64,000 nucleotides of DNA from an uncultured Verrucomicrobiae bacterium (GTDB taxonomy: Bacteria; Verrucomicrobiota; Verrucomicrobiia; Chthoniobacterales; UBA10450): NCBI GenBank assembly GCA_963791565.1, contig CAWBSX010000004.1:372601-436600 (forward strand). The letters run 5' to 3'. The first letter of the stretch is position 1. Every line of letters starts with the position of its first letter. Both the position numbers and the translations under genes were made by a program. The notes under the pieces are model-generated. The model searched no databases. It was given only the letters and a program-made list of their open reading frames with translations, and was not told the origin of the DNA. Positions 4,669 through 62,995 of this stretch are shown here, piece after piece.

Positions 4669-4679
4669 TCGACCACTCG

Positions 4680-5672
4680 TTAGGCGAACTCGCGAAAAAT
4701 CTCCGCGCCAATTTCGAACGAGCGCAGCCGCGCCGCGTGATCGAAAATTTGTCCGGTGGCAATTATTTCGTCGGCGCCGGTTTCGTCCAGAATGGATTTT
4801 ACCCGCGTGCGAATGGTCGCGGGCGATCCGATGAGCGCATAACGCATTCGCTCGTCCACGGCCGCGCGCTCCAGCATATTCCACTCAACTTCCATGTCGT
4901 CGACGGGCGGCGGCAATTCGCCGGGCTGGCCGCGCACAAGATTCAAAAACATCAGCTGCGCGGAAGTGGCGATTCGCTGACCTTCTCGGTCGGTCTCCGC
5001 GCCAAAGAGTCCGGCGCCGATCATGACGTAAGGTTTCTGCAACTGCGCCGACGGTTTGAATTCGCTGCGATAAATCTTGAGAGCGACGTGCAGATATTCC
5101 GGCGCGAAATGTGAGGCGAAGGCGAAAGGCAGGCCGAGCTCCGCCGCGAGACGCGCGCTAAAATCGCTCGAGCCTAACAAGTAGAGCGGCACCTTTAAAC
5201 CCGCGCCCGGTACCGCACGCAACCTCTCGTTAGGCGCAGCCGGCTTGAAATAGGATTGCAGTTCGAGAAGGTCTTGCGGAAAAGTCTCGCCGCTGCTGCC
5301 GAGATAACGCCGCAAAGCGCGTGCAGTCAGCTGGTCGCTCCCCGGCGCGCGACCGAGGCCGAGATCGATCCGTCCGGGATAGAGCGATTCCAGCGTGCCG
5401 AACTGTTCCGCGATCACGAGCGGCGCGTGATTCGGCAGCATGATCCCGCCCGCGCCGACGCGAATCTTTTTCGTCGCGCCCGCGACATGACCGATAACGA
5501 TCGACGTCGCCGCGCTCGCGATTCCTGGAAGATTGTGATGCTCCGCTAGCCAGAAGCGATGATAACCCCACTCCTCCGCGTGCCGCGCCAGATCGGCCGT
5601 GTTGCGAAATGCCTGCGACGCGTCACCGCCTTCGACAATCGGTGACAGATCGAGAACGGAATAGAACTGCAT
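4680..5672 (-). CDS. LLM-class (luciferase-like) flavin-dependent oxidoreductase
   Basis: Start chosen at [12 protein letters not shown] (ATG at 5672, overlapping the TGA of the upstream gene). [26 protein letters not shown] is typical of this family. The TAA stop lies inside a motif copy. Confidence 0.8.
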
Positions 5673-6016
5673 CAGGTCCGAACGGACTGCACGATCAGCA
5701 GCACGATATCGAGCAAGGCCACAACGATGATGAAGGCGCCGAATTTCTTCTTGCTCCAATACGGAATGGTCTCGTTAGGCGAAAGCTCCTCTGTGCGCTT
5801 CATCCCGGTCGGCGTCATCTCGAATCGCCAACCGATGATGAGCGCCATGGGAAATCCCAGCGCGACGATGATGATGAAAAACTTGAGCAGACCCGGTGCA
5901 TCCATCATTGGAAAAAAGATCCAGGCGAGATCAATCGCCAGCCAGGCGAGCAACAGGTAAACGACCGTGACCTTGTGCACGTTGCGGCGTCGAAATTCGC
6001 GAAAGAAATTGGTCAT
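5672..6016 (-). CDS. Small integral membrane protein
   Basis: 114 aa with 3 hydrophobic helices. It is overlap-coupled on both sides (ATGA at 6013-6016 and TGATG at 5670-5674). Confidence 0.55.
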
Positions 6017-6903
6017 GCGCCGTGATATTTCCGCCAGTAGCGCACCGCGCCACTCACTGCCATGTAGCTTGGATCGGCCGCCTCGTAGTTGTCGACCTCA
6101 TCCTGCTTCGCGCCATGCTCGCGCAAATCGGTGTGTTCGTATTCAGCAAAAGGCGCAATGAGTTGCGGCTCCTCTTTGCCTTCGCGCAACCGATCGCGAA
6201 ACCATTCCGACCAGCGCCGCACACGCTCTTCCAGTTGGTCGAAATGCATCGCGATCGAATTTTCCACCAAACCAAAATGCGGAAGATAAAGTTTCGCCGG
6301 ATCGAGAACGCGCATCTTCGCGATCGATTCGAGCCACGATTCGACGTGCAATTCCGGCGGGACGAAGGGCGGGATCGGCGGACCGCTGCCAATTCGCACG
6401 CCAGCAATGTCGCCACCGAAAAGGATGTCGTCCCAATGGTAAACGTGATGATGACTGGCGTGACCGGGCGTGGCGATGGCGCGAATGCCTAATGAATCCA
6501 GTTTAACCACATCGCCATCCTGCAGGATCCTGATTTTGTCTTCCGGCACGGGCGCGATTTTTCCCCACAATCGTTCCATGTCGTCGCCAAAAATCCGCGT
6601 GGCGGAATCGACTAATTTTTTCGGATCGATCAGATGCGGCGCGCCGCGCGGGTGCACGTAAATCCTCGCGCCCAATTCCGCGAAGCGCCAGCCTGCCCCG
6701 GCATGATCAAAATGAATGTGACTAAGAAAAACGTGCCGAACCTCTTTTGCTTCCGCCCCAATCCGCCGGAGTTCGGCCACGACGTTCTCGAAAGTGGATT
6801 CGGGACCGGTGTCGAAGAGCGCGATACCGTCCTTCGTTTCGAGCGCCGTCGCCGCAATCACGCCCGGGCATCCCAGCTGTCGCGTATCGAGAACGTGCAT
6901 CAT
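6013..6903 (-). CDS. MBL-fold metallo-hydrolase
   Basis: 296 aa with an HxHxDH motif (SHIHFDHAG) and downstream TPGHASHH. Confidence 0.85.
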   Translation of the reverse strand: MMHVLDTRQLGCPGVIAATALETKDGIALFDTGPESTFENVVAELRRIGAEAKEVRHVFLSHIHFDHAGAGWRFAELGARIYVHPRGAPHLIDPKKLVDSATRIFGDDMERLWGKIAPVPEDKIRILQDGDVVKLDSLGIRAIATPGHASHHHVYHWDDILFGGDIAGVRIGSGPPIPPFVPPELHVESWLESIAKMRVLDPAKLYLPHFGLVENSIAMHFDQLEERVRRWSEWFRDRLREGKEEPQLIAPFAEYEHTDLREHGAKQDEVDNYEAADPSYMAVSGAVRYWRKYHGA

Positions 6904-6951
6904 CGGAAATTCGCGTTCGCACTCTCACGTCATTTGGTCGAAAAGAAAATC

Positions 6952-8022
6952 ATGAGTGCTCTTCGAATTCTCGCGGTTCTGCTCGCCTCGATTGCCATCT
7001 CGTTCGCGGCCGATTATCCGCAGCCGGCCGAAAGTGATTACATCATTAAGGACTTCAAGTTTGCGTCCGGTGAATCCTTGCCGGAATTGCGCATTCATTA
7101 TCGGACTATCGGTAAACCGGATACCGACGCGCACGGGGAAATTCATAACGCCGTGCTGATCACGCACGGCACCACCGGGAGCGGCGCACAATTCGTTAGG
7201 CCGGAATTTGCCGGCGAACTTTTCGGCGCGGGACAGCCGCTCGATGCCGCAAAATTTTTCATCATCCTGCCGGACGGAATCGGCCACGGAAAATCGAGCC
7301 GGCCGAGCGAAGGCTTGCACGCGAAGTTTCCGCGCTACGGCTATCGCGACATGGTCGAAGCGCAGTTCCGTTTGTTAACCGACGGCCTTGGCATCAAACA
7401 CGCGCGGCTCATCATGGGCACATCGATGGGCGGAATGCACACCTGGCTCTGGGGCGAAATGCATCCGGATTTCATGGACGCCCTCATGCCGCTGGCGAGT
7501 TTGCCGACGCAAATTTCCGGTCGCAATCGCGGGTGGCGCAAAACAGTCAGCGACGCTATCCGCAACGATCCCTCCTGGGAAAACGGCGATTACAAGACAC
7601 AGCCGCAGAGTTTGCGCACCGCGGCGGAGATGTTGTGGTTCATGAGCAGCAATCCGGTCTTGCGCCAAACGGAAGCCCCGACTTTGGAGAAGACGGATGA
7701 GGTGCTCGAAAAGTTCGTCGCTGATCATCTGAAAAATGACGACGCGAACGACGTGCTCTATGCAATCGAAGCATCGCGTGATTACGATCCCGGTCCGAAC
7801 CTGGAGAAAATTCGCGCTCCACTTCTCGCGATCAACTCCGCCGATGATCTGATCAATCCGCCTGAGCTCGGAATTCTGGAACGCGAAATCAAACGCGTCC
7901 CGCACGGACGCGCCATCGTTATTCCATTAAGCGACAAGACGCGCGGGCATGGCAGCCACACGCTGGCGGCGTTGTGGAAAGATGAGTTGGTAAAACTACT
8001 GGCCGAATCTACTACTCGTTAG
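6952..8022 (+). CDS. Secreted alpha/beta hydrolase (homoserine O-acetyltransferase-like fold)
   Basis: Start at MSALRILAVLLASIAISFA (signal-like). It has the nucleophile elbow GTSMGGM. The stop is the TAG inside the motif copy at 8015. It overlaps the convergent gene by 11 nt. Confidence 0.75.
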   Translation: MSALRILAVLLASIAISFAADYPQPAESDYIIKDFKFASGESLPELRIHYRTIGKPDTDAHGEIHNAVLITHGTTGSGAQFVRPEFAGELFGAGQPLDAAKFFIILPDGIGHGKSSRPSEGLHAKFPRYGYRDMVEAQFRLLTDGLGIKHARLIMGTSMGGMHTWLWGEMHPDFMDALMPLASLPTQISGRNRGWRKTVSDAIRNDPSWENGDYKTQPQSLRTAAEMLWFMSSNPVLRQTEAPTLEKTDEVLEKFVADHLKNDDANDVLYAIEASRDYDPGPNLEKIRAPLLAINSADDLINPPELGILEREIKRVPHGRAIVIPLSDKTRGHGSHTLAALWKDELVKLLAESTTR

Positions 8023-9103
8023 GCCGAATTCCGCGTTGCGTCACCAGATAGACCGCGAAACTGCCTAACCAGTGGCCACCTTCGTAATGTTCGCCGGTGA
8101 CGGCGGCTAACCCCGCGCGACGATGCGCCGCGGCCGCGGCTTGCAAAGCACCACGGCGCGAATCGTCTTTGGGCAAAACGGAAAGAATTCCTTCCAGCAT
8201 CCAGGCACGGCTTAGATTCAAGCCGTCGAGGTGCGCCAACTTTGGATCGCTCGGATCCGGCGAGACAGCTATTGGCAGCCAGTCGATCTTGGACTCGTTA
8301 GGCAATTGCGGCAGAAAATCCTTCAGCCATTTCGCAAAATCATCCGCTGGAAGAACGCGGCGCATGACGTCCGCTTCCGCCAAACAGGGCGAAAGAAAAT
8401 CTTCCCCGGAAGGTTCGTAAGCCAGGGGCGCGTTCTTGTCGGCGTCGAAAAATTGTCTGGCCTTTGCGCTCACCAGTTTCGCGAACTCTTCGTTCTTAAC
8501 CACGCGCGCGTAGTCCAGCATCAAGCCCAGGGAAAAGGCCGTTTGATTGTGTTCGCCGATGCGAATTGGGTGAGAAAGTTTCGGCAGCCAGTTCGTTAGG
8601 CGCTCAAGCGCGGCCGTTTCGACCGGCTGCAAGTTTGTCGATAATTCGCGTGCCTCCGGATCATCCCATTCGCGCAATTCGGCGCAGAGTTGCAGCAACC
8701 ATGCTAATCCATATGGCCGCTCGAAACTGGCGCGACCTTCGCCGCGCAAATAGGCCGCCTCCTGTTTGAGATTCTCCGCGCTCAAACTCTTGCGCAGTGC
8801 TTCGCGCGCCGCGGCCGCGAAAGGCGCATCGGGAAATGTTCTCGTCAGGCGAACGAGCAACCAATGGCCGTGCACGGAGGAATGCCAGTCGTAACAGCCG
8901 AAAAATGCCGGCGTCAGTTTGCGCGGCGGCGCGACATCGGCGTCGCTGTTCAAATTGTGGCTGATCTTGTTCGGATACTCTTTGGCGACGCAGGCGAGCG
9001 CCAGATCGGCGAAACGTTGCGCGGCTGCGACATCGAATTTCGGCGAAGATTCTTCCGCCATAACCACGAGCGGGAGCAAAAATAGAAATGCGCACGTTTT
9101 CAC
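8012..9103 (-). CDS. Secreted hypothetical protein (DUF2891-like)
   Basis: 363 aa with signal-like MKTCAFLFLLPLVVMA and CYDWHSSVHGHW, as I recall for DUF2891. The family assignment is from memory and unverified. Confidence 0.55.
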   Translation of the reverse strand: MKTCAFLFLLPLVVMAEESSPKFDVAAAQRFADLALACVAKEYPNKISHNLNSDADVAPPRKLTPAFFGCYDWHSSVHGHWLLVRLTRTFPDAPFAAAAREALRKSLSAENLKQEAAYLRGEGRASFERPYGLAWLLQLCAELREWDDPEARELSTNLQPVETAALERLTNWLPKLSHPIRIGEHNQTAFSLGLMLDYARVVKNEEFAKLVSAKARQFFDADKNAPLAYEPSGEDFLSPCLAEADVMRRVLPADDFAKWLKDFLPQLPNESKIDWLPIAVSPDPSDPKLAHLDGLNLSRAWMLEGILSVLPKDDSRRGALQAAAAAHRRAGLAAVTGEHYEGGHWLGSFAVYLVTQRGIRPNE

Positions 9104-9119
9104 TTGCGGTAGTTATGGT

Positions 9120-9749
9120 TTGAATTTGAAAACCAGAAAACCAGAAAGTTCTGATTTCACCAAAGCGGAGCTGCGCAAACTGCGGGCGTTGAAAACACCG
9201 CAAGGCATTCAACGCTTTCTCGATTCGTTGCCGTATCATCTGGCGACGACGGCCTGGTCGCCGCGGCGCGTTTTGCAGGAAGGCACGGCGCATTGTCTGG
9301 AAGGCGCGATTTTCGCCGCGGCTGCGCTGCGCGCGCTCGGATATGCGCCGCTTATTTTCGACTTGGAAGCGGAACAGGATACCGATCACGTCGTGGCGAT
9401 TTATCGGACGCGCGGACACTGGGGCGCGATCGCCAAATCGAACTTCTCAGGTTGCCGCGATCGCACGCCGGTTTATCCGACCTTGCGCGAATTGGCCCTG
9501 AGTTATTTTCACATCTATTTCAATCTGCGCGGCGAACGGACGTTGCGTCGCTATTCGCAACCGGTGAATCTCGCGCGTTTCGATAAACGCGATTGGATGA
9601 CAACGGACCAGGAGGTTTGGTTTATCGCCGATTATCTCTGCGAAATTCCGCATCGTCCGGTGGTCAAGCGGACCTTGTTAAAAAATGCGTACCGCATAGA
9701 CGCGCGCACGATGCAGGCCGAGATGGTCGGTCATCGAAAGAAGCACTAA
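9120..9749 (+). CDS. Transglutaminase-like putative cysteine peptidase
   Basis: There is a Cys motif GTAHCLEGAIFAAAALRALGY and a His motif DHVVAIYRTRGHWGAI. The start is uncertain (TTG at 9120 or 9126), because the upstream part of the track ORF is antisense to the neighbouring gene. Confidence 0.5.
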   Translation: MNLKTRKPESSDFTKAELRKLRALKTPQGIQRFLDSLPYHLATTAWSPRRVLQEGTAHCLEGAIFAAAALRALGYAPLIFDLEAEQDTDHVVAIYRTRGHWGAIAKSNFSGCRDRTPVYPTLRELALSYFHIYFNLRGERTLRRYSQPVNLARFDKRDWMTTDQEVWFIADYLCEIPHRPVVKRTLLKNAYRIDARTMQAEMVGHRKKH

Positions 9750-9758
9750 CCTGCGTTC

Positions 9759-10478
9759 GTGGAGACGAAGACACATATTCTAATCACCGGTTCGACGCGT
9801 GGCATCGGCGCCGTCACGCGCGACGAATTGAAGAAACAGGGCGCTCGTGTCATCGGTCACGGTTCGCGCGCAGCCGGAGCGGAAGAAATCCCCGCGGATC
9901 TCTCGCAGCCCAATGCAGCGGATGCACTGTGGCGCGAAGCGATCGAACGACTCGACGGCCGGATTGACGTCCTGATCAATAATGCCGGCATTTACGAACC
10001 TGTGTCCGTTGGAGAGAGCACGGAAGTTTGGGAAGCGCGCTGGAATCGCACCATGCAGATCAACCTCCAGGCCGCAGCGGATCTTTGCCGACTGGCCGTT
10101 TCGCATTTCCGATCGCGCGCCGGAGGCGGTCGCATCGTCAATGTCGCGAGTCGCGCGGCCCATCGCGGTGATTCGCCGGAGCACTGGCATTACGCGGCGT
10201 CGAAAGCGGGCTTGATCGCTGTGACAAAGTCGATCGCGCGTGGATTCGCGACCGAAGAAATCTACGCCTTTGCCGTCGCGCCCGGTTTCACCATGACTGG
10301 AATGGCGGAAGATTACCTAACGAGTCGTGGAGGTGACGCGATCCTGAAAGAGATACCATTACGTCGCGTGAATTCCGCGGAAGAAGTTGCCAACGCGATC
10401 GTTTATCTCGCTCTGCACGCTCCAGCCGCAATGACCGGCGCGGTGATTGATATCAATGGCGCGAGTTACGTGCGCTGA
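9759..10478 (+). CDS. SDR-family oxidoreductase
   Basis: 239 aa with TGSTRGIG cofactor motif, NNAG, and catalytic YAASKAG (YxxxK). Confidence 0.9.
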   Translation: METKTHILITGSTRGIGAVTRDELKKQGARVIGHGSRAAGAEEIPADLSQPNAADALWREAIERLDGRIDVLINNAGIYEPVSVGESTEVWEARWNRTMQINLQAAADLCRLAVSHFRSRAGGGRIVNVASRAAHRGDSPEHWHYAASKAGLIAVTKSIARGFATEEIYAFAVAPGFTMTGMAEDYLTSRGGDAILKEIPLRRVNSAEEVANAIVYLALHAPAAMTGAVIDINGASYVR

Positions 10479-10698
10479 TTTGCCTAACGAGTAGTTAATT
10501 CGCTGCTAAAACGCGGCTGTCCTACCGCGTTTCAACCGTTGTCCCAAAAGCGGAACGGTCACATCCCAAGCACGACACGTTTCCGATGGACTCGTAAAAT
10601 GATCCACATTCTCAAGTGGCTGATTTAATGGTATTTGTGACTTGTTTTTGGCGGTGGCATAGGCCTTGCAAATAGAAGCGGCCTAACCAAACAAACCA

Positions 10699-10947
10699 AT
10701 GAAAAACAAAAACACTTATTCGCTTCTCGTTCAGTCCCAGGAGAAGGGTCGCTCGATTTTCGAAGCTTCGATTTATGGCCTCGTGATTCTCTGCACCGTT
10801 TTCTCCGCCTGGTCGTTCGCGGCGCATTCGATCATGTTGCCCGGAATGAACCACGTGGACAAAAACGCGGGGACGGAAATGGCCGCGCAAGCAGCGGCGG
10901 AGAACCCTGTCGCCATCGCGAGCAACGCCGACGCCAACGCGCTGTAA
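10699..10947 (+). CDS. Small single-pass membrane protein preceding the permease array
   Basis: 82 aa with one helix, IYGLVILCTVFSAWSFAA. It is preceded by the most AT-rich intergenic stretch of this region. No homology recognised. Confidence 0.35.
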   Translation: MKNKNTYSLLVQSQEKGRSIFEASIYGLVILCTVFSAWSFAAHSIMLPGMNHVDKNAGTEMAAQAAAENPVAIASNADANAL

Positions 10948-10980
10948 TCGTGGCGTTGCTAAACGCCTAACGAGTCCTGC

Positions 10981-13443
10981 GTGAACACGTTCCTGAAGGA
11001 TCTGCAGTATGCCGCGCGCATGCTGCTGAAAAATCCTGGTTTCAGCGCCATCGCGGTCATCGCTTTGGCGCTCGGGATCGGTGCCAACACCGCGATCTTC
11101 AGCGTGGTCAGCGCAGTTCTGCTGCGTCCGCTGCCTTATCCGCAGCCGGAACAAATCGCCGCCGTCTGGGCGGCGGACAATACCAAAGGACACGCGAAGA
11201 CTTCGTTTTCGTTTCCGGATTTTGCGGACGTGCGCGCGCAGAACCAGGTCTTCAGCGCGATGGCGGCGTACGACGATTCCGACATGACCGCGACCGACCG
11301 CGGCGCGGATGCCGAGCACATGCACGGCCTGCTGGTGACGTCGGATCTTTTTCGTGTCTTAAACGTGAATCCGATTCTCGGACGCGGCTTCACTGCCGAT
11401 GACGACAAACCCGGCGTGCGCGTCGTCGTTTTGAGCTACGACCTTTGGCAACGCCGGTTCGGCGGTGATCGCAACGTTCTCGAAAAAACGATCACGTTGA
11501 ACGAAACGCCGCATCAAATCATCGGCGTCATGCCGCCGACGTTCCGTTTTCCAATCGAAAAAACGTCCGCCGTTTTCTGGACTTCCGCCGCAACGCAATT
11601 TGAAGCCGCGCCCGGCAGCACCGAGACCTCAGCTTCGCAGCGCGGCATGCACTTCTTGCACTCCATCGCACGCCTCAAACCGGGTGTGAGCGCGGCACAG
11701 GCGGAAGCGAACACGAAGACCATCATGGCTTCGCTGGCCACGCAATATCCCGATTCGAACAAGCGCTTCGATTCCTCGCGCGTCGTCGCGCTTCTCTCCG
11801 ATCTAACTACCGATGTCCGTCCCGCGCTCGTCGTTCTCCTCGCCGCCGCCGGCTGCGTCTTGCTGATCGCATGCGTGAACGTGGCCAACCTTCTTCTCGC
11901 CCGCGCCACTTCGCGCGAAAAGGAAATGGGAATTCGCGCCGCGCTCGGCGCGAGTCGGGCGAGAATTTTCCGGCAGCTCCTCACCGAAAGCGCCTTGCTC
12001 TCGTTAGGCGGTGGCGCCGCCGGGATGTTGCTGGCCGTTTGGGGAACAGCCGGCCTCGCCGCGTTGCTTCCGCAAAATTTTCCGCGCGCAGAGGAGATCG
12101 GACCCGACCTGCGCGTGCTCGCGTTTACCGCACTCGTTAGTCTTTTTACCGGCCTCCTTTTCGGACTCGCCCCGGCCTGGCGCGTTTCGCGGCCTGATGT
12201 TGTCAGCGCGCTCAATGAAAGCGCGCGCGGCTCGAGCGAAACCGCGCGCGGTCGCCGCCTGCGCGGAATTCTTGTCACCGCCGAAATGGTGCTCGCGTTT
12301 GTCTTGCTCGTCGGCGCCGGGCTCTTGATCCGCAGCTTTTGGCAATTGCAGAAAGTGCCGATCGGCTTTGATCCAAACCACGTCATGACCGCGAGTGTTT
12401 CGCTGCCCGAGGGCGACGGCGGACCGGAAATCACCAAGCGCGACGAACAATTTTACGTGCAGCTGATGGAACGGGCCAACGCCATTCCCGGCGTCCGTTC
12501 GGTCGCGGCGATCAGCCCATTGCCCTTGAGCGGCGCGGATTGGCGAACCGGGTTCGACATCGCCGGCCGTCCCACCGCGAAGTCCGATCGAGCGCTGAGC
12601 GCGGCGCGCGTCGTTACGCCGGGTTATTTCGGCACGATGGGAATTCCGCTGCGCAAAGGCCGCGATTTCGATCCGCGCGATAAGTTCGAATCGGCCGGCG
12701 TTGTCATCGTGAACGAATCACTCGTTAGGCAATATTTTCCTAACGAAGATCCAATCGGGAAAAGAATCACACCGCAAATTTCACTGGATGTGCGCGAACC
12801 GATCGAGCGCGAGATCATCGGCGTGGTCGGCGATGTGAAGGCGCGCAAGCTAACCGCGGAAAATATGGCCGAGTTGTATCTGCCGCACACGCAGGCGCCG
12901 AGCGGCAGCATGACGATTGTCGCGCGCACCCATATGGAACCGCAGGCGATCCTGCCTTCGCTGCGCGGCGCGGTTGAAAGTTTGAACAAAGATCTGCCGC
13001 TCTACGAAACGCGGACCATGCAGCAATATCTTGATCGCGCCGTCGCGCAGCCGCGCTTGAACATGACACTGCTCATCGTTTTCGCGGGTGTGGCCATCGT
13101 CCTCACCGCCGTCGGAATTTACGGCGTGATGGCTTACTCGGTCGCACAACGCACCCAGGAAATCGGCATTCGCATGGCGCTCGGCGCGCAACGTTTCGAT
13201 GTTCTGCGACTCATCGTCGGACAAGGCGCGCGCTTGGTTGCGCTCGCGATGGTCATCGGCGTCGGCGCTGCGTTCGCCATGACTCGATCAATCGCCAGTC
13301 TGCTCTACGGCGTCGGGGCGACAGATTTCCCCACACTTTTCTCGGTCGCGCTTCTTCTCGCACTCATCGCGCTCCTGGCTTGCTGGTTGCCGGCGCGCCG
13401 CGCGAGCGGGATTGATCCGATCACCGCGCTACGCACGGAATAA
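10981..13443 (+). CDS. ADOP-type (MacB-like, duplicated FtsX) orphan ABC permease, paralog 1
   Basis: 820 aa. N-terminus [36 protein letters not shown], two FtsX halves, and C-terminus [19 protein letters not shown]. Confidence 0.9.
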
Positions 13444-13503
13444 TTCGTATGCGAGAAGAAGCGCGGCGCGACACTCTGGGTAGCGCAAGCGTCTCGCGCG
13501 CCG

Positions 13504-13535
13504 GTTTCGGTGTCTCGCCGAAACGAACTTTTTTT
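13504..13535 (+). terminator. Candidate rho-independent terminator after paralog 1
   Basis: Stem GTTTCGG (13504-13510) pairs with CCGAAAC (13518-13524). After 4 nt there is a T7 run (13529-13535). Confidence 0.45.
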
Positions 13536-13575
13536 CGAGCAAAGTCCACATCGCCTAAGGAGAGGAGAAACTTCG

Positions 13576-15987: not shown

Positions 15988-15997
15988 GAACGCCAAC

Positions 15998-18430: not shown

Positions 18431-18448
18431 TTCGCCTAACGAGTCCTA

Positions 18449-20863: not shown

Positions 20864-20880
20864 ACGTTCCAAGCGCTTGC

Positions 20881-20965: not shown

Positions 20966-20971
20966 ATCTGC

Positions 20972-21424: not shown

Positions 21425-21459
21425 GTGCGCAGTATCTGTATCGGCGTAAGCTTCGGCCA

Positions 21460-25024: not shown

Positions 25025-25032
25025 GATTCTGC

Positions 25033-47022: not shown

Positions 47023-47071
47023 CTTTCCTTTTTTCTGGTCTCGTTAGGCGCGCACTGCCACTCTCCGCCGC

Positions 47072-47587: not shown

Positions 47588-47601
47588 GCAGCTACTTCGC
47601 T

Positions 47602-49684: not shown

Positions 49685-49761
49685 AGGTTCGCGGCACGCT
49701 CTGGCGGAAGCGGTCGCGATGCAACTTAGGCGCGGCAGGAATTCTGCTTACTCACGTGCCG

Positions 49762-50538: not shown

Positions 50539-50563
50539 CGAGTGCCTAACAAGTCCTTCTGAA

Positions 50564-50599
50564 AAGCCGGGAGAGCAATCTTCCGGCTTTCGTTTTTCT
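50564..50599 (+). terminator. Candidate rho-independent terminator after the PEP-CTERM gene
   Basis: Stem AAGCCGG (50564-50570) pairs with CCGGCTT (50583-50589), followed by TCGTTTTTCT. Confidence 0.6.
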
Positions 50600-50690
50600 G
50601 CGGCGCCGTGACCTTCGATCACTCTTTGTTTGCCATTGATCTTCGCTTTTTTCCGATCAGAATCGTCTTCCCCAAACGGAAGGACATTTT

Positions 50691-54678: not shown

Positions 54679-54729
54679 GTTGTAGCAAGCGCATTGACGA
54701 TCCCGAGCACGCTGCGCGACACTGCGCCG

Positions 54730-55813
54730 ATGGAGTGCCCGTTTAATGGCGAACGGCCGGTGCAGTATTACGGCGATTATCTCGGGTCGAAAAACTCCTC
54801 GAGCTACAGAAGCCGCTCAGCCTCAAAGAAGGCAAGCTCATCGCCCACGATGAAATGCTCTTCATCATCATCCACCAGGCCTACGAACTCTGGTTCAAAC
54901 AAATCCTGCACGAGTTGATGGCGTGCGGCGAAGTTCTCGAGAAACCGGCGGCGGACGATGACGGCCCGGACATGAACGTCGTCGTGCATCGTTTGAAACG
55001 GACCGTGGAAATTTGGAAACTTTCAACCATCAGGTAGACGTCCTGGAAACAATGACGCCACTCGATTTTCTGGAGTTCCGTCGAAAGCCTCCAAGGCGCC
55101 TCGGGTTTTCAAAGCACCCAATTCCGCCAGATCGAAGCGACTCTCGGCTTGCGGATGGAGAACGTTTCCGGCCGGATTACTACAAGCACACCGAGATGGG
55201 TGGCTTTAACGAGGCGGACTACCAGAGATTGTCGAGTGCGGAAAAGGGCGAGTCCTGTTGCGAATGGTGGAACGGTGGTTGGCCCGCATGCCATTCTTCG
55301 ACGAATCCTTCTGGCAAAAGTGGGATGGCGAAGAACGGACCGGCCAACCCGGTAACGGCCAAATTTTGGAACCACTACCGAAAACTTTACGAGCAAAGTC
55401 TTTCCGAACGCGATGAAAAAAACGACTTTTAGGCAAATTCGACGCATGTTTTTCGAGGAAGGGCCCGGGCGATTTCTCCGCCGCCCGCTTTGCGGGCCGC
55501 GCTTTTCATCATGCTCTATCGCGACGAGCCGCTCTTTCGTTTGCCCTTCGCTCTGCTTAACAGCTTGATCGAGATCGACGAACAGCTGGCCAACTTCCGT
55601 TATCGCCATCTGCAGATGGTGCGGCGCATGATCGGCACAAGGGTCGGGACTGGTGGAAGCAGCGGCGAGCAATACCTGCAAGGCGCGGTAAATAAAAACT
55701 ACGTCTACAAAGAACTGGCCGGCGTCATCACGTTCCTGATCGAGCGACGAAATCTGCCCGCGCTGCCCGCGCGTTTGCATAAGGCGCTCCGTTTCAGTTT
55801 CGCGGAAGTCTAA
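54730..55813 (+). pseudogene. kynA: Tryptophan 2,3-dioxygenase, reading frame broken about 10 times
   Basis: TDO sequence is recovered only by frame hopping. Segments are YYGDYLG / EKLLELQKPLSLKEGKLIAHDEMLFIIIHQAYELWFKQILHEL / VDVLETMTPLDFLEFR / GASGFQSTQFRQIEATLGL / RPDYYKHTEMGGFNEADYQRL / LLRMVERWLARMPFF / ALRAALFIMLYRDEPLFRLPFALLNSLIEIDEQLANFRYRHLQMVRRMIGTRVGTGGSSG. Confidence 0.75.
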
Positions 55814-55828
55814 CGAGTAGTCGAATCC

Positions 55829-56641
55829 ATGGCCGAAACAGATTACGTCCTCGGCACGCACGATGAAGAAGTCGCGCGGCTCGGCCTGCAACATCGCGTC
55901 TGGCGACCGGTCGTGACCGAATGCTGGCAGCGCGCCGGCATTACCGACGGCTGGCGCGTCATCGACATCGGCGCAGGACCGGGTTACGCCACCGCTGACC
56001 TCGCGGAAATTGTCGGACCGACCGGCGCTGTTCTCGGCATCGAACGCTCGGCGCGTTTTCTCGAAGCCGCACGCGATCGTTGCGCGCGTCGCGGCCTGAC
56101 GAATGTCAAATTCCGCGAGAGCGACCTGATGGAGCTCTCGTTAGGCAATCTCAATTACGACGCCAGCTGGTGTCGCTGGGTCGCGTCATTTGTTTCATCG
56201 CCGAAACTCCTGGTCGAAAAAATTGCCGGCGCCTTGCGCAAAGGCGGCATCGCCATTTTTCACGAGTACAGCGACTACGAAACGTTTTGCTTCATGCCGC
56301 TTCGTCCGGCGATCGAAAACTTCCGGCGCGAGGTCGCATCGAGCTGGCGCGCCAGTGGCGGCGAACCCGATGTCGCGCGTCAGTTGCCGGGACTGCTGCG
56401 CGACGCGGGAATGCGCGTGCGCGAAATCCGGCCGCGCGTCATCACCATTTCACCGCACGATTATGCCTGGCAATGGCCGGCGAGCTTCATCGAGATTAAC
56501 GTCCTGCGTTTACAGGAGCTCGGTCGCCTAACGAGTGAACAAGGCGCGGAGGCCTTGCGCGAATTTCACGAAGCCAATGCTGATCCCGAGTCCTGGTTCA
56601 CCACGCCGATGTTTCTCGAAATCGTGGCGGAGAAAAAATGA
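55829..56641 (+). CDS. Class I SAM-dependent methyltransferase
   Basis: 270 aa with motif I VIDIGAGPGYAT. The stop overlaps the next start (ATGA). Confidence 0.8.
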   Translation: MAETDYVLGTHDEEVARLGLQHRVWRPVVTECWQRAGITDGWRVIDIGAGPGYATADLAEIVGPTGAVLGIERSARFLEAARDRCARRGLTNVKFRESDLMELSLGNLNYDASWCRWVASFVSSPKLLVEKIAGALRKGGIAIFHEYSDYETFCFMPLRPAIENFRREVASSWRASGGEPDVARQLPGLLRDAGMRVREIRPRVITISPHDYAWQWPASFIEINVLRLQELGRLTSEQGAEALREFHEANADPESWFTTPMFLEIVAEKK

Positions 56642-57893
56642 AACGACTGCTCGTTTCGTTTTTGTTGTTCACTGCGATCGCTCGCGCCGACCAGCCTATC
56701 CTGTTGAAACCAGCCGCCGTTTTCGACGGACAGGAAATGCATCCCGGTTGGTCGGTCTTGATAAATGGAGACAAAATTTCTGCGGTCGGGCAGCGGATGT
56801 CTCCGCGCCGGCGGACGCGCGCACGATCGAGTTGCCTAACGAGACCTTGATGCCGGGAATGATCGAAGGTCATTCGCACATGTTCCTTCACCCGTACAAC
56901 GAGACGAGTTGGAACGAGCAGGTGACTAACGAATCGTTGGCCTTGCGCACTGCGCGCGCCACTGTGCATGCGCGCAAAACTTTGGAAGCTGGTTTCACCA
57001 CCGCGCGCGATCTCGGGACGGAAGGCGCCGGTTATGCCGATGTCGGACTGAAGCAGGCGATCGATAGCGGAATTATTCCCGGTCCGCGTCTCATCGTGGT
57101 TACGCGCGCGATCGTCGCGACGAAAAGTTACGGGCCGAAATACGCGAGCGAACTCGACGTTCCGCAAGGCGCGCAGGAATGCAGCGCCGTCGATGAATGT
57201 ACCCGCGTGACGCGCGAGCAAATCGGCAAAGGCGCGGACTGGGTGAAGGTCTACGCCGATTATCGCTGGACGCCTAACGAGTCATCGCGCCCGACATTTT
57301 CGCAGGAAGAATTAAATGCGATCGTGCAGACAGCTCGTTCTGCGGGTCGGCCGACTGTGGCGCACGCCACAACCGCGGAAGGAATGCGTCGCGCGATTAA
57401 CGCCGGCGTGGACTCCATTGAGCACGGCGATGAAGGAACCGCGGAAGTGTTCCGTTTAATGAAACAAAAAAACGTCGCGTTTTGCCCGACGGTCGCTGCG
57501 GGCGATGCCGTCTCCCGTTATCACGGCTGGAAAAAAGGAACGGATCCGGATCCACCGCGCATCGCGCAAAAACGCGCGAGCATGAAAGCCGCGCGCGAAG
57601 CCGGCGTGACCTTTGCGATGGGCGGCGATGTCGGCGTTTTCACTCATGGCGAGAACGCGCTCGAAATGGAATTGCTCGTGCACGAGTACGGCTTCACGCC
57701 TCTGGAAGTGTTGCGCCAGGCGACGAGCGGCAACGCCGCCGTGTTCCATCTCACCGACCGAGGACTCGTTAGGCCAAATTTGCTCGCCGATCTCGTGGGT
57801 GTGGAAGGCGATCCGACGCGCGACATCGATCTTGTGCGCAAAGTAAAGTTCGTCATGAAAGGCGGGACAGTCGTGCCTTTGCCTAACGAGTGA
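56638..57893 (+). pseudogene. Secreted amidohydrolase (metal-dependent, imidazolonepropionase/Xaa-Pro dipeptidase-like), one frameshift
   Basis: The true N-terminus is MKRLLVSFLLFTAIARADQPILLKPAAVFDG...INGDKISAVG (track ORF 56638). It continues as ADVSAPADARTIELPNETLMPGMIEGHSHMF in the frame of track ORF 56535, with 1 nt missing near 56791-56793. Confidence 0.8.
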
Positions 57894-58727
57894 TGGAAAC
57901 ACCCGACGCTCTCCCGCCAAAACCAAAACGTTGGCCGGTCGCGCTGCTGGTCGGCTTCATCAGTGCGATCATCGGCGCGGCGATCTCCGCGCCCGTCTCC
58001 GACTGGGCGATGCAGATGCATCACGTTTCCGCGCGCGAAGGCGAACGCGGGTATGCGGTCATGTGCCTCTGGATACCGCTTGCGTTTGTCATCTGTTTCG
58101 TCGCTGGATTTGTCGTTAGTCTGCTAATCAAGCGCAGCGGTTTCGTCGGTTATTTGCTGCGCCAAGGTGCGGCGCTCGCCATTGTTCTATTTTGGTCGGC
58201 GATCGGGCGCCGTTGGTTACGCCACCGCCGATCATCCGCCGTTGGTCGATGGAAAAAATCTCGCGCTCGAAATCGAAGTGCGCGTGCCACGCAAAGGTCG
58301 ATCCATCGAAGATTTGAAAAAAGCCGATTTCAGTGTTGCGCTCGTCGTCTCAAATTCCGATCGCAGTTATTCCGACATGCGTTGGACGGAAGCGAGCGAG
58401 TCTAACGAAACCATCACTATTCCCGCCTGGGCCAATTTGAATTCGCGCAACGCTGGCCGCGAAATCACCGCCGGCATAAAAGATGAGAACCGGCAAATCT
58501 TTAACGTCATGCGTCGCGCCTCGCCTGCGATCGATGAAGCCTGGTCGGAATGGGAACCGCCGCGCGAGCGGTTCGATGGCAGCAAGCCGGCGCCGGGAGA
58601 TCAATATCAGGTTCGCTATCGCGTGCGTTTCGCGGGCGAATACTCACCGACCCCGCGACCGACGCTTACTTACGAGCCATCGACCCCGGAAGAAACGGCG
58701 TCGCCTAACGAGTCGTCGTCGCCATAG
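57890..58727 (+). pseudogene. Membrane protein with C-terminal soluble domain, probable single frameshift
   Basis: Track ORFs 57890 and 58167 join at about 58208, where there is an extra C. The third TM helix is then complete across the junction (GAALAIVLFWSAIG/AVGYATADHPP). No family recognised. Confidence 0.5.
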
Positions 58728-60163
58728 TGCGCGATCGTCGCATCGAGTTCATTCTGGTCCTGTGCGCCGCCGTCATGATTGGCGCGCGGATTTTTGGACC
58801 AAGCGCGTTGCAGCGACAGGATCAACCCCGCACTGCTTCCTACACGGCCGACATCGCGGCGAATGATCGTTGGCTGCTACCGCGCGACATGCTCGGCAAC
58901 ACCGCCACGAAACCGCCGCTGGTGAATTGGTTGGCCGCGCCACTGCTTAAGCTGGGTTTCTGGACGGAATTCGCGGTGAAATTACCAATGCTGCTCGCCA
59001 GCCTCGCGACACTCGCGCTCACAATCTGGTTCGCCAACCATTCGTTAGGCAATCGCGATCTCGCCTACCTCGCCGGCATCGTCTGGCTGGTGAATCCCGC
59101 GAACATCAACATGATTTACCATTGCCGGCCCGATCCGGTGCTGATCGCGTTTCTCACCGCCGCGTGGATTCTCGCGACGCGAATCATTCGCGACGAAAAT
59201 CCGGCGCGTGGAATCGTCGCCGGTTTTTGGATTTGCGTCGGACTAGCCGGCCTAACGAAAGGTCCAGCCGCACTCGTTGCGGTCATTTATCTTCCACTGG
59301 CGGCGCGTTTGATCGGCGGGCGTTGGTCAACCGCCAATCGCAGCCAGTGGTGGTGGGGCCTTCCGCTGGCCGCGGCAATTTTCTGCGCGTGGGCCATTCC
59401 GTGCGCCCTTCGTTATCCGGACGCCTTCTACAAAACGCTCGTCGGTCACGAGCTGCTCGCGCACTCCTTAGGCCTCGGCCAGCAATTCGGTAACAATCAT
59501 CTCACGAGCGAAGGACCAATCGCCGCGTTGAAATTGATCTGGCAGAATCCGGTCTGGTTCGTCACGCGATTTGCGCCGTGGTCATTAGCTACCGTGGCCG
59601 CACTCATCGTCATCGGCGCGCGCCAGTGGTTCCGTCATGAACTCGCGCCGGCCATTCTTTGGTTGCTCGTCGTTCTGTGTTTCTTCGCGCTCTCCGCGCA
59701 CAAAACGGCCGATTACATTCAGCCTGCATTTCCGGCCGCCGCTATTCTCGCCGCCTGGTTCTTTCAATATCTTCGCGTTCCGTTACGCATCGTCGCGATC
59801 GCATCACTTCTCTTTGCCATCGGACTCGCGCTGCATTTCGTTTTCCTCAGCAATTTCTCGCGCGATCGGCGCGGCGAAGATGTAAAAGCCTTCGCGCGTG
59901 ATGTGAGTGCCATCGTCCACGACGATCCGGTTGTTTTCGCCGGCACCGGCTACAACACGCTCGAATTATTTCTGCGTCGTTGTCAGCCGAGCATGTTGCC
60001 GTCGGCGGAAGAAAAGGCGCGGGCGAAATGGATGGTGGCGCCGTTGTTGCCGGGAATTCCGGCGGAAATTGTTTCGAAGCGATTACCAACCGCGCCGATT
60101 TCGCGCAGTGTTATTCTCGGTTTGTATCCGATGGATCGGGTGCGAGATCGCATCGAGAAATGA
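58727..60163 (+). CDS. GT39/ArnT-like polytopic glycosyltransferase candidate
   Basis: 478 aa with many TM helices. KPPLVNWL and GLTKGPAALV are reminiscent of ArnT/PMT-type enzymes. The call rests on architecture only. Confidence 0.5.
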   Translation: MRDRRIEFILVLCAAVMIGARIFGPSALQRQDQPRTASYTADIAANDRWLLPRDMLGNTATKPPLVNWLAAPLLKLGFWTEFAVKLPMLLASLATLALTIWFANHSLGNRDLAYLAGIVWLVNPANINMIYHCRPDPVLIAFLTAAWILATRIIRDENPARGIVAGFWICVGLAGLTKGPAALVAVIYLPLAARLIGGRWSTANRSQWWWGLPLAAAIFCAWAIPCALRYPDAFYKTLVGHELLAHSLGLGQQFGNNHLTSEGPIAALKLIWQNPVWFVTRFAPWSLATVAALIVIGARQWFRHELAPAILWLLVVLCFFALSAHKTADYIQPAFPAAAILAAWFFQYLRVPLRIVAIASLLFAIGLALHFVFLSNFSRDRRGEDVKAFARDVSAIVHDDPVVFAGTGYNTLELFLRRCQPSMLPSAEEKARAKWMVAPLLPGIPAEIVSKRLPTAPISRSVILGLYPMDRVRDRIEK

Positions 60164-62970
60164 CTTCGATCGAAAAGAAATTGCGGACCGCAGATTGCGA
60201 TGTCGCCTTCGACAATCTTACGCGCCAACTCTTCGCCAGCGATGCCTCCTTATATCAAATCGAACCGCTCGGCGTCGCATATCCGCGCAGTCCGCAGCAG
60301 GCGCGCTCGATCATAACTACCGCGGCCGAGGCCGGCATCTCCGTCATTCCGCGCGGCGCCGGCAGCGGACTTTCTGGCGGCGCGATTGGCGATGGATTGA
60401 TCGTCGATTTCTCGCGCTTCAATCGCGAGATCAGTGCGTTTGATTTGGAGAAACGAACGGTGCGCATCGGTGCCGGCGTCGTGCTCGATCAACTCAACGC
60501 CTTCTTGAAGCCACACGGCTTTTGTTTTGGTCCGGACGTAGCGACGAGTTCGCGCGCCACGCTCGGCGGCATGATCGCGAACAATTCTTCCGGCGCGCGT
60601 GTGCCGGTTTACGGCACGACGGCTGATCATGTCGTCGCGCTCGAAGTGGTCCTGGCTGATGGCCGGATTGAAAACATTTCGACGAACAACCACTCGTTAG
60701 GCGCGGAACACCAATTCATCGCGCAGCTCGTGCAGCGTCACGCCGCTGACATCGCGGAATGGATGCCGCCGGGAATGTTGAAACGCTGGAGCGGCTATGG
60801 GCTCGCGCGTTTTCTTAATGAGCCGAACGACTTAACGGAGATCTTTTCGGCGAGTGAAGGAACGCTCGGCGCGATTTGTTCTGCCGAACTCAACATCGTG
60901 CCACTGCCGCGGGAAAAAGGTTTGGGCCTGGTGTTTTTCGCGTCGGTCGCCGAGGCGATGCAAGCGACGGTCGAATTGCTGGACCTCAAGCCATCGGCCA
61001 TCGAGCACATCGACAAGCCACTCTTCGATCAGACGAAGGGTCAGCTTCTTTTCCAGGCCGCGCGCGATTTGATGGAGCTCGATACGAAACCGTGCGAAGC
61101 GATCTTGATCGTCGAATTCTACGAAGATGTCGCCGCGTGCCTAACGACACTCGCATCGAAACAGCTCGGGCTTCGCACCTTGATCTGCAAAAACGCGGCG
61201 GAGATGAATCTCATCTGGGCGATGCGCAAAGCCGGATTGTCGCTCCTGACCGGCCGGGTCGGTCCCGCGAAGCCGGTGGCTTTCATCGAAGATGCCGCCA
61301 TTCCACCGCACAAGCTGCCGGAATACGTCGCGGGCTTGAGATCGCTCATGGATCCGCTCGGTCTCGAGGTTTGTTATTACGGCCACGCCGCCACCGGACT
61401 ATTACACGTGCGGCCGGTGCTCGATCTGCGGCGAGCAGATGACCTGCGGAAGTATCGGCAAATCGCCGACGGAGTTTCAGCACTCGTTAGGCAATTCAAA
61501 GGCTCGCTCGCCGGTGAGCACGGCGTGGGCATCGCGCGGACTGAATACATGCGCGCACAAGTGGGCGACGAATTGTTCGGTGTCATGCGCGAGATCAAGC
61601 GCCTCTTCGATCCGAAGAATCTTTTTAATCCGGGGAAATTGATCGGCGACGGCGAATTCAAAGTCGATTCGCATTTGCGCAGCACCTACACCTCGCATCC
61701 GACGCTGCCGTTTGAACCACGCCTCGCGTTCGCGTTTAAAGATGGTTCGTTCATCGGCAATCTCGAGCAGTGCAATGGCTGCGGCGGGTGTCGCAAAGAT
61801 GCGCCGACGATGTGTCCAACTTTCCTCGCTACCGGTGAGGAATACATGTCGACGCGCGGTCGCGCCAATGCCATCCGCGCCGCGCTGGAATTGCGCACGG
61901 ACAATCATGATCCCCTGCGCGCGCATGAGTTGGAAAAAGCGCTGAGCAACTGTCTTTCGTGCAAAGCTTGCACGACGGAGTGTCCGTCGAACGTCAATCT
62001 GGCATTGCTCAAGGCCGAGCTGCTTTATGCGCGCCACCGACGCGATGGTTTGCCGCTGCGCGAACGAATGCTGAGTGCGGTGGACTTGTTAAGCAAGCTC
62101 GGTTGTCTCGCTCCGCGTCTGGCCAACGCCACGCTGGAAAATCGATTCGTGCGCGGGTTGATGCAGAACTCGTTAGGCATTTCGGCGAAACGACCCTTGC
62201 CGCATTATGCGCGGGAGCGTTTCGATAAATGGTTCGTGAAACATTCGCCGACGAAAACGACGCGAGGGCGTGTGATTCTTTGGGATGACACCTTCGTCCG
62301 CTATCATGAACCGAACATCGGCATCGCCGCCGTAACGGTTCTGGAGTCGTTAGGCTTCGAAGTTGCGCTGGCGAAGAATCGGAAATGCTGCGGACGTCCG
62401 GCGTTCAGTCAGGGAAACATCGATGAAGCCAAACGGCTCGGTCAGCATAATCTCGCGCTGCTGAAGGGATCCGACGCACCGATTCTGTTTCTGGAACCTT
62501 CGTGTTACTCAATGTTCGCGGAAGATTATCGCGAGATGAATTTGACCGACGCGGTGGCCGTTGCGCCACGCGCATTTCTCTTCGAACGATTCGTCGAAGA
62601 CATTCTCGAACGCGAACCGAATGCGTTGCACCTCAAGCAAACCGCGGGACACGTCGCAATCCATGCGCATTGTCACGCCAAAGCGCTGATGAAGCCCGAC
62701 TTTATGAAGCAGCTCGCGCAACGTTTGCCCGGCAGAAAGGTGGAGCTACTCGACACCGGCTGCTGCGGAATGGCGGGCGCATTTGGCGCGCTGGAATCAA
62801 AATACGAATTATCGCTACAAGTGGCGGAACCACTCGTTAGGCAAGTTGAGGCGCAACCGAACGAGACGACAATCGTCGCCTCTGGCACGAGTTGCCGTCA
62901 TCAAATCGAACATCTCACGACCGCCAAGCCGCAGCACATGGCAGAGTTACTGGCCGATGCCTTAGTCTGA
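60160..62970 (+). CDS. FAD-binding (GlcD-like) dehydrogenase fused to a 4Fe-4S / CCG-domain module (YdiJ-like)
   Basis: Start at MTSIEKKL, where the ATG overlaps the upstream TGA. It has an FAD PCMH domain (PRGAGSGLSGGAIG), Fe-S motifs CNGCGGCRKDAPTMCP and CLSCKACTTECP, and CCG motifs CCGRPA and CCGMAG. About 936 aa. Confidence 0.85.
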   Translation: MTSIEKKLRTADCDVAFDNLTRQLFASDASLYQIEPLGVAYPRSPQQARSIITTAAEAGISVIPRGAGSGLSGGAIGDGLIVDFSRFNREISAFDLEKRTVRIGAGVVLDQLNAFLKPHGFCFGPDVATSSRATLGGMIANNSSGARVPVYGTTADHVVALEVVLADGRIENISTNNHSLGAEHQFIAQLVQRHAADIAEWMPPGMLKRWSGYGLARFLNEPNDLTEIFSASEGTLGAICSAELNIVPLPREKGLGLVFFASVAEAMQATVELLDLKPSAIEHIDKPLFDQTKGQLLFQAARDLMELDTKPCEAILIVEFYEDVAACLTTLASKQLGLRTLICKNAAEMNLIWAMRKAGLSLLTGRVGPAKPVAFIEDAAIPPHKLPEYVAGLRSLMDPLGLEVCYYGHAATGLLHVRPVLDLRRADDLRKYRQIADGVSALVRQFKGSLAGEHGVGIARTEYMRAQVGDELFGVMREIKRLFDPKNLFNPGKLIGDGEFKVDSHLRSTYTSHPTLPFEPRLAFAFKDGSFIGNLEQCNGCGGCRKDAPTMCPTFLATGEEYMSTRGRANAIRAALELRTDNHDPLRAHELEKALSNCLSCKACTTECPSNVNLALLKAELLYARHRRDGLPLRERMLSAVDLLSKLGCLAPRLANATLENRFVRGLMQNSLGISAKRPLPHYARERFDKWFVKHSPTKTTRGRVILWDDTFVRYHEPNIGIAAVTVLESLGFEVALAKNRKCCGRPAFSQGNIDEAKRLGQHNLALLKGSDAPILFLEPSCYSMFAEDYREMNLTDAVAVAPRAFLFERFVEDILEREPNALHLKQTAGHVAIHAHCHAKALMKPDFMKQLAQRLPGRKVELLDTGCCGMAGAFGALESKYELSLQVAEPLVRQVEAQPNETTIVASGTSCRHQIEHLTTAKPQHMAELLADALV

Positions 62971-62995
62971 CAATTGTCATCGCCTAACGAGTGAT

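Follow-up and report, generated by a model that had tools for sequence, protein, structure and literature searches.

An uptake-sequence-like ten-base word in Chthoniobacterales genomes that supplies stop codons in both orientations

Uptake sequences are known only in the Neisseriaceae and the Pasteurellaceae, where they gather in permissive regions, avoid the frames in which they would place a stop codon inside a gene, and are biased towards gene termini (PMC2346458; 10.1101/2025.10.24.684340). About half of the copies of the DNA uptake sequence (DUS) and of the uptake signal sequence (USS) have been reported to lie in predicted terminators (10.1101/2025.10.24.684340). Here we analyse a ten-base word, GCCTAACGAG, that is repeated throughout a 64-kb stretch of the genome of an uncultured Verrucomicrobiae bacterium (Chthoniobacterales, UBA10450; assembly GCA_963791565.1, contig CAWBSX010000004.1, positions 372,601 to 436,600), hereafter the window. 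The word is like the DUS of Neisseriaceae (GCCGTCTGAA) and the USS of Pasteurellaceae (AAGTGCGGT), which have 9-12 bases, occur at about one copy per kb and use both strands equally. It also shares with them a conserved core with weaker flanks, many one-mismatch variants, a clade-specific distribution with differences in density, a location mostly within genes in tolerated frames, an imprint on the proteome, avoidance of stop frames and a bias to gene termini. It differs from them in its sequence and in belonging to another, mainly uncultured phylum; moreover, inverted pairs in terminators are not enriched, the word contains a stop codon in both orientations so that some 6-8% of genes terminate within it, and its eight-base core is also enriched in some Gemmatimonadaceae. 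On balance, we favour the view that the word is maintained by an uptake-sequence-like drive acting at the DNA level, and that its supply of stop codons is a by-product of constraint.

In the window, GCCTAACGAG occurs 49 times compared with 0.07 expected from dinucleotide-preserving shuffles, or about once per 1.3 kb, and the motif and every coordinate listed in the preliminary description of this DNA proved to be correct. The exact copies are divided between the strands as 25 on the plus and 24 on the minus strand; the reverse complement is CTCGTTAGGC, and the word is thus asymmetric. When up to one mismatch is allowed, 89 copies are found compared with 3.1 expected, and the 40 one-mismatch variants are changed mostly at the last base. 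The 49 exact copies prefer T at position -2 (31/49), a pyrimidine at -1, and T at +1 (37/49) and +4 (38/49), giving an extended form, tYGCCTAACGAGTnnT, with about 14 informative bases. Outside positions -2 to +4, the information content of the aligned copies falls to zero, and because no conserved flank extends beyond these approximately 14 bases, the repeat is a word rather than a mobile element.

Several other classes of repeat can be set beside this word. Repetitive extragenic palindromes (REP) and bacterial interspersed mosaic elements, as well as miniature inverted-repeat transposable elements (MITEs), also form many repeats, often beside gene ends; however, they are imperfect palindromes of 20-150 nt that are intergenic and have conserved flanks, whereas about 75% of the copies described here lie in genes. 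The sequence logo and the coding locations rule out an MITE or REP element. A separate REP-like palindrome, GGGGAGCGCACGCTTGCAGCGTGCTGG, occurs just after gene ends in two related loci (L118, 2837-2858 and 14382-14403; L119, 16455-16476) and is absent from the window. Chi and the FtsK-orienting polar sequences (KOPS) are also over-represented short words recognized on DNA, but words of this type are strongly co-oriented with replication and 5-50 times rarer than the present one, which uses both strands of the window equally. Across local stretches of 8-64 kb, to which the orientation and skew tests apply, non-seed copies had the same orientation as the seed copies in 118 cases and the opposite one in 109, without local persistence, and a replication-skewed word was thereby ruled out. 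Even spacing was also rejected, as the coefficient of variation of the distances between copies (0.94) is the same as for random positions. The cyanobacterial HIP1 (GCGATCGC) is hyperabundant in coding and non-coding DNA, and its function is unsettled, possibly involving a DNA-level drive; the present word resembles it in this hyperabundance but is an asymmetric ten-base sequence with a stop codon, whereas HIP1 is an eight-base palindrome.

To place the window among other genomes, 185,579 species genomes were scanned for two copies 240-270 nt apart. The scan yielded at least 114 loci, and at least about 92 of them, from more than 40 metagenome-assembled genomes (MAGs) labelled Chthoniobacterales, 'Spartobacteria' or Verrucomicrobiae, carry the word densely. 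With the seed copies removed, the 92 other loci hold 0.32 copies per kb; the density differs by lineage, L121 having no copies and L118 having 0.86 per kb, the two extremes, and syntenic relatives of the window have 0.5-0.9 per kb. The taxon-labelled close homologues of the proteins of the window are all from Chthoniobacterales or Verrucomicrobiota, save one protein of a MAG labelled Blastocatellia (79% identity). An origin in the Acidobacteria, to which the ADOP permeases and the PEP-CTERM gene had pointed, was therefore ruled out, the motif-rich genomes and the close homologues being of the Chthoniobacterales. The two-copy scan is biased to rpsA, in which S1 domains lie 261 nt apart, and the class of copies read as SLG is inflated in it; for this reason, the statistics were recomputed without the seed copies, and also on loci retrieved by protein instead of by motif. 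In ribosomal protein S1, the residues ISLG of successive S1 domains are encoded by ATC-TCG-TTA-GGC, placing a copy every 261 nt (for example, L096, 4369-6168), and this repeat also drew a few unrelated phyla into the scan.

Genes were called in the window and the 92 loci (767 kb, 728 genes) with our own caller, based on a three-periodic Markov model and interval scheduling. As the null, we used the one named in the preliminary description, namely uniform positions minus those at which the word would interrupt a gene with an in-frame stop. The association with stop codons survived this frame-exclusion test: 44 of the 460 copies supply the stop codon of a gene, compared with 0.55 expected (0.12%). 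In the window, 6 of the 49 copies appear to do so, compared with 0.06 expected, although two of the six are artefacts, as discussed below. The effect was reproduced with the seed copies excluded both in short-read MAGs (12/133) and in nanopore MAGs (8/92), and in five loci chosen by protein and not by motif (3/51), the expected numbers lying within 0.06-0.15. With the seeds included, 22 of 257 copies in short-read MAGs supply stops, and one-mismatch variants do likewise in 6 of 82 cases. Seen from the genes, 24 of 380 stop codons in short-read MAGs (6.3%) lie in a copy, namely 12 of 126 TAA and 12 of 131 TAG. Approximately 6-8% of genes in these soil bacteria, or about one in fifteen, end in the word. 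Both orientations contribute, as had been claimed, with 24 TAA and 23 TAG stops within copies. Stop usage in the short-read loci is nearly even (TAA 126, TAG 131, TGA 123), and TAG is unusually common for a GC content of 58%; for the window together with L116-L120 the counts are TAG 54, TAA 51 and TGA 36. The motif accounts for only about 9-10% of the TAG stops.

The preliminary description had gone further and proposed that the word is placed preferentially at gene boundaries. This holds for the stop codons themselves and for the stretch immediately behind them, where 17 intergenic copies lie within 15 nt after a stop compared with 4.6 expected (P = 2e-6); it does not hold for placement in general, as 347 of the 460 copies (approximately 75%) are wholly inside genes and only about 15% are fully intergenic. 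Fully intergenic copies showed no overall enrichment (68 observed compared with about 81 expected), nor did copies within 15 nt upstream of starts in the pooled sequence (7 compared with 5.5 expected). Copies in stop-free frames showed no gradient towards gene ends except at the exact PNE-stop position, for which there are four cases compared with about 0.25 expected by arithmetic from the pooled counts.

When the share of TAA and TAG trinucleotides lying in a full copy was counted by class of site, it was 11.3% for TAA stop codons, 4.7% for intergenic TAA and 5.3% for out-of-frame TAA in genes; the corresponding values for TAG were 9.8%, 5.6% and 7.5%. The odds ratio of stop to intergenic sites was 2.6 for TAA (P = 3e-4) and 1.8 for TAG (P = 0.03). 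Because the excess per trinucleotide is only 1.8-2.6-fold, the approximately 80-fold excess over the frame-exclusion null is mostly explained by where TAA and TAG already exist; this normalization may over-correct, the motif itself making about 5% of all non-stop TAA and TAG.

Inside genes, the word is confined to the four of six frames that are free of stops, in which it is read as PNE, LT, LVR or SLG. All four are occupied on both strands, with a modest bias in the pooled loci (141 sense and 206 antisense copies). The tally for the window is 14 PNE (including the copy at 8015 in the DUF2891 gene and that at 57881), 7 LT, 8 LVR (9 with the copy at 27660) and 8 SLG. The copies at 52192, 53017 and 53209 in the gene for a beta-helix protein have similar flanks (NTIGGLTS repeats) and are paralogous repeats within one gene rather than independent copies. 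The word leaves an imprint on the proteome. In 163 kb not selected by the motif, PNE ranks first among 3,913 tripeptides for over-representation (7.2-fold), with 72% of its occurrences encoded by CCTAACGAG; SLG is encoded by TCGTTAGGC (TCG-TTA-GGC), with the rare codon TTA, in 68% of cases, and LVR is enriched 2.1-fold.

Three loci (L116, L117 and L118) from two other species are syntenic to positions 1-43,600 of the window, with about 77-91% DNA identity around the copies. For seven of the eight coding copies in the interval from 21.4 to 43.6 kb, L116 has an identical copy at the orthologous position, in flanks that are only 77-91% identical; conservation of coding copies is similar in L117 and L118, and the copy in carB at 27660 is also present at its L116 site. 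The boundary copies are more varied. Those at 8015 (with the 11-nt gene overlap), 10482 and 10965 are identical in L117 and L118; at 18434, the relatives carry the one-mismatch variant GCCTAACAAG, and at 20970, L118 has the one-mismatch variant TTCGTTAGGC at the same metallophosphoesterase stop. The copy at 4676 is present in L118 but beside the stop of the neighbouring gene, the monooxygenase ending 165 nt away, and no copy exists at the L116 sites orthologous to 31051, 34430 and 35020. At the junction of rpoA and rplQ in L116 (12099-12309; 35020 in the window), GCCTAAC is followed by an inserted hairpin, CCCCGAAAGCTTTCGGGG.

The C-terminal tails that the word ends differ between relatives in both length and sequence. 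Relatives of the monooxygenase end in REFA, REK (TGA), REFATARL (TAG) or AEL (TGA), and the tail of the hydrolase is ESTTR with the word and ESGESNK without it. Beyond YLVTxRG, the tail of DUF2891 proteins can be as short as 2 residues or longer than 10, and the PNE end occurs only in the five closest homologues. In L120, a distant lineage with a GC content of 0.65 and three copies in 21 kb, one antisense copy provides the TAG of the DUF2891 gene (...SSTR-stop); judged from the sequences, the word was captured here independently, at the end of the same gene but in the opposite orientation. The individual features of the window are collected in Table 1, and they bear out the stops ascribed to the word in the luciferase-like monooxygenase, PEP-CTERM, alpha/beta hydrolase, phosphoesterase and SRPBCC genes, the ...PNE-stop ends of the DUF2891 and amidohydrolase genes, and the single copy used by two convergent overlapping genes. 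One further open reading frame (ORF) ended by a variant, at 55490-55813, is probably a fragment of a tryptophan dioxygenase gene, judging from its translation read by eye.

Table 1. Copies and variants of the word at gene ends and junctions in the window, with associated features
Feature	Position	Strand	Context
Exact copy	4676..4685	-	Its TAA (4682-4680) terminates the luciferase-like monooxygenase (LLM) gene, ending ...REFA-stop; 8 nt from the stop of convergent gene 4258-4668
Exact copy	8015..8024	-	Common to two convergent genes with an 11-nt overlap; alpha/beta hydrolase ends ...TTR-TAG (8020-8022), DUF2891 ends ...RPNE-TAG (8014-8012)
Exact copy	10482..10491	+	3 bases between the copy and the TGA stop of the upstream short-chain dehydrogenase gene
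Exact copy	10965..10974	+	Ends 6 nt short of the GTG (10981) at which ADOP permease paralogue 1 starts; Shine-Dalgarno position
Variant GCCTAAGGAG	13553..13562	+	One mismatch; AGGAG next; upstream of the ATG (13577) of ADOP paralogue 2
Exact copy	18434..18443	+	Inside the 18-nt spacer of ADOP paralogues 3 and 4; 3 bases after the TAA stop of paralogue 3, ending 5 nt before the ATG of paralogue 4
Exact copy	20970..20979	+	Reverse-complement TAG (20974-20972) is the metallophosphoesterase stop, ending ...LTR-stop
Exact copy	27660..27669	-	Inside carB, encoding LVR of GYPVLVRPS; pseudo-stop through an upstream frameshift
Exact copy	31051..31060	-	Lies some 18 nt beyond the stop (TAA 31031-31033) at which sodC probably ends
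Exact copy	34430-34439		In intergenic DNA, 17 nt ahead of the start codon of gene 33685-34413; one of the remaining 35 copies of the last row
Intrinsic terminator of rplQ	34476..34508	-	15-bp stem, then T tract; contains no motif copies
Two one-mismatch copies, inverted	34519..34550 (34519-34528 and 34541-34550)		Flank the rplQ stop (34540-34538); 9-bp stem possible
Exact copy	35020..35029	+	Within the 20-nt spacer from the rpoA stop to the rplQ start
Exact copy	47040..47049	-	Between divergent start codons 47022 and 47072
Variant GCCTAACGAA	47580..47589	-	Reverse-complement TAG (47585-47587) is the SRPBCC stop, ending ...TIR-stop
Exact copy and variant	50533..50553 region	+	TAA (50536-50538) of the exact copy is the PEP-CTERM stop, ending ...RRPA-stop; variant copy 50544-50553 one base after it
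Variant GTCTAACGAG	55808..55817	+	TAA (55811-55813) ends ORF 55490-55813; not in the preliminary description
Exact copy	57881..57893	+	Read as PNE, then at once the TGA stop (57891-57893) of the amidohydrolase gene
Exact copy	62982..62991	+	Within the 25-nt spacer of convergent stops 62970 and 62996
Remaining 35 exact copies	643..62842	both	34 inside genes in the four stop-free frames, 1 intergenic (34430-34439)

We propose that GCCTAACGAG would be spread and maintained throughout the clade by a process that acts on double-stranded DNA in a sequence-specific manner, and that the likeliest such process would be preferential uptake and recombination of word-bearing DNA, a molecular drive of the kind proposed for USS and DUS. 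Purifying selection would then determine where copies survive. In the four stop-free frames, copies could accumulate within genes at the cost of slight changes to the proteins, whereas in the two frames with TAA or TAG they would be lethal inside genes and would persist only where a stop is wanted. Gene ends would be favoured because an existing TAA or TAG already gives three of the ten bases, ones that are rare in a genome of 58% GC, and also because constraint is weak on the final residues of the protein and on the bases that directly follow the stop. Given this head start and this weak constraint, the supply of stops would be a by-product rather than a purpose of the word, and the pattern agrees less well with a function at gene ends than with tolerance combined with a head start. 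A signal read at the RNA level is argued against by the equal use of the two orientations and by the location of most copies, which are equally conserved, inside genes.

Several observations weigh against such an uptake-driven origin. The excess of 1.8-2.6-fold at stops persists after normalization per trinucleotide. The copies at 8015, 10482 and 10965 are kept across three species, and this may indicate a local function at gene ends. The inverted-repeat terminator pairs that are common for DUS and USS are not enriched: no excess of inverted pairs was found among 900 copies, for which adjacent pairs within 60 nt are inverted in 23 cases and direct in 20, compared with about 61 estimated under random spacing. 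Single copies thus dominate, as the preliminary description had stated. The presence of the core GCCTAACG in a second phylum may point to another kind of process. The gene models also come from a simple caller of our own, and many of the loci are from draft MAGs. A few tight inverted pairs do occur in the pooled loci, in the form CGTTAGGC, 5-8 A/T-rich bases and GCCTAACG, which could make hairpins (for example, L015, 3585-3612; L085, 6396-6423; L099, 3694-3721); they are too few to constitute an enrichment.

The second phylum is represented by nine scanned loci from six MAGs of Gemmatimonadaceae (GC 0.62-0.69), in which the eight-base core GCCTAACG occurs 82 times in 58.7 kb and positions 9-10 are relaxed (the Gemmatimonadaceae loci being L008, L011, L024, L059, L087, L090, L095-L097 and L124-L127). 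The S1 protein of one of these loci is 86-97% identical to proteins named Gemmatimonadaceae, and the core is therefore not the result of mis-binning. In a locus retrieved by protein, 13 copies of the core were counted in 21.8 kb, compared with about 0.8 expected from an estimate based on base composition; in another species of the family (L127), it occurs twice and is not enriched. To our knowledge, nothing comparable has been described for uptake sequences. A core common to two phyla leaves room for other mechanisms. Another process on DNA, such as a repair bias linked to a methyltransferase or a sequence-specific chromosome-binding protein, would produce the same bias to gene ends as a by-product, and it would account equally well for the strand symmetry, the use of frames, the proteome imprint and the conservation between species. 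Sharing of the core would be easily understood if a mobile enzyme or binding protein were common to both phyla, and the lack of an excess of inverted pairs also agrees with this alternative. A short-patch repair bias has reportedly been proposed for the HIP1 palindrome. However, no word driven by repair or serving as a binding site is known to reach about one copy per kb with an asymmetric specificity of ten bases, and the window gives no hint of such an enzyme; we regard a process other than uptake as unlikely, though it is the most serious of the alternatives.

A local function at gene ends appears to us distinctly improbable, be it that of a fail-safe stop covering several frames, of a signal for pausing or termination, of an element at mRNA 3' ends or, in short junctions, of a weak ribosome-binding site. 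It would explain the residual excess at stops, the cluster of copies just after them, the PNE-stop cases, the three boundary copies kept in three species and the independent gain at the DUF2891 end. The junction copies at 10965 and 18434 also fit the position of a Shine-Dalgarno sequence, 5-6 nt before the starts of two ADOP genes, and TAACGAG is one mismatch from TAAGGAG, which the variant at 13553 matches perfectly. The ribosome-binding site of ADOP paralogue 2 (13553-13567) is GCCTAAGGAGAGGAG, in which a variant of the word is combined with a perfect Shine-Dalgarno sequence (TAAGGAG). However, a general role at ribosome-binding sites is not supported by the pooled count before starts, where no excess exists. 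Shine-Dalgarno sites may be near-cognate seeds for new copies. Neither the location of some three-quarters of the copies in genes, where they are equally conserved, nor the equal use of both orientations would be expected of a gene-end signal, and the boundary copies at 31051, 34430 and 35020 were not kept in L116. Termination in particular was ruled out for single copies and for the pair at rplQ. Single copies have no partner with which to form a hairpin and differ from intrinsic terminators in lacking a G+C-rich stem followed by a T tract. The two inverted variants at the rplQ stop, which were said to be able to pair, can indeed form a 9-bp stem, but they fold no better than shuffled sequences (z = -0.33) and lack a T tail, and the real terminator of rplQ, a 15-bp hairpin with a T tail on the minus strand (34508-34476), stands separately just downstream of them.

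The assembly itself also requires consideration, as the window is noisy. The genes carB (25540-28750) and rpoA (35032-36072) are spread over at least five and over three frames, respectively, and are intact in the syntenic relative L116; those for an S9 peptidase (47602-49684), the beta-helix protein (50691-54678) and the probable tryptophan dioxygenase (54700-55813) look broken when read by eye, and sodC (31024-31033) is broken as well. Many of the motif-rich relatives are nanopore MAGs, and the frameshifts of the window look like long-read homopolymer errors rather than pseudogenization. This noise matters because a shifted ORF runs to the next stop, which is often a copy of the motif. Both artefacts among the six apparent cases of the window arose in this manner. 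The copy at 27660 was ruled out as a stop, as it encodes the LVR of the carB signature GYPVLVRPS. The sodC stop that had been assigned to the copy at 31051 was also lost: all 120 of 120 homologues (68-90% identical) end in CGVIGVAKP-stop or within one residue of it, whereas the protein of the window ends in ...VANPNMSLHSTR-stop, and the underlying DNA, GCAAACCCTAAC, lacks one A of GCA AAA CCC TAA. This places the true stop very probably at 31031-31033, the TAG at 31056-31058 being reached only through a one-base homopolymer frameshift. That the whole association is an artefact of frameshifts and spurious ORFs running to a motif stop, as these broken genes might suggest, is nevertheless hardly credible and already largely refuted, since the same fraction of copies supplies stops in short-read MAGs with or without seeds, Pfam profiles stop 3-50 residues short of the protein ends at the other motif-ended genes and none of these looks truncated, a short-read relative has the hydrolase and DUF2891 genes arranged identically, and an independent short-read contig (L001) encodes an identical SRPBCC protein. 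The practical lesson is that frameshifted ORFs in noisy long-read MAGs often meet a motif copy and thus mimic the real effect.

With regard to the preferred explanation, uptake and recombination of word-bearing DNA, no competence genes or genes for a receptor such as a minor pilin of the ComP/ComN type were seen in the window or in the gene tables that were read, whole genomes not having been scanned. Viral contigs scanned for the word gave two matches, which is the chance level, and carriage by phages was ruled out. A literature search for the word or its complement returned only primers and unrelated sequences, and no report of uptake sequences or of competence emerged for Verrucomicrobia, Chthoniobacter or Udaeobacter.

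We tentatively suggest that the word could be the first sequence-specific DNA-uptake signal outside the Proteobacteria, in abundant but uncultured Verrucomicrobiota of soil, with a core (GCCTAACG) common to some Gemmatimonadaceae. If so, there would be either a horizontally transferable DNA receptor linking two phyla or an unrecognized drive at the DNA level, and this drive would remodel gene ends to the extent that 6-8% of genes stop in the word and convergent genes can have one copy in common. As an uptake signal, the word would extend self-preferring uptake well beyond two proteobacterial families, to the Chthoniobacterales, which are nearly all known from MAGs, and it would offer a ready tag for designing transforming DNA for organisms that cannot yet be manipulated. 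Whatever its driver, the word would be a case of a DNA-level drive that reshapes both proteins, as seen in the most over-represented tripeptide, and gene ends, through the capture of stop codons in both orientations.

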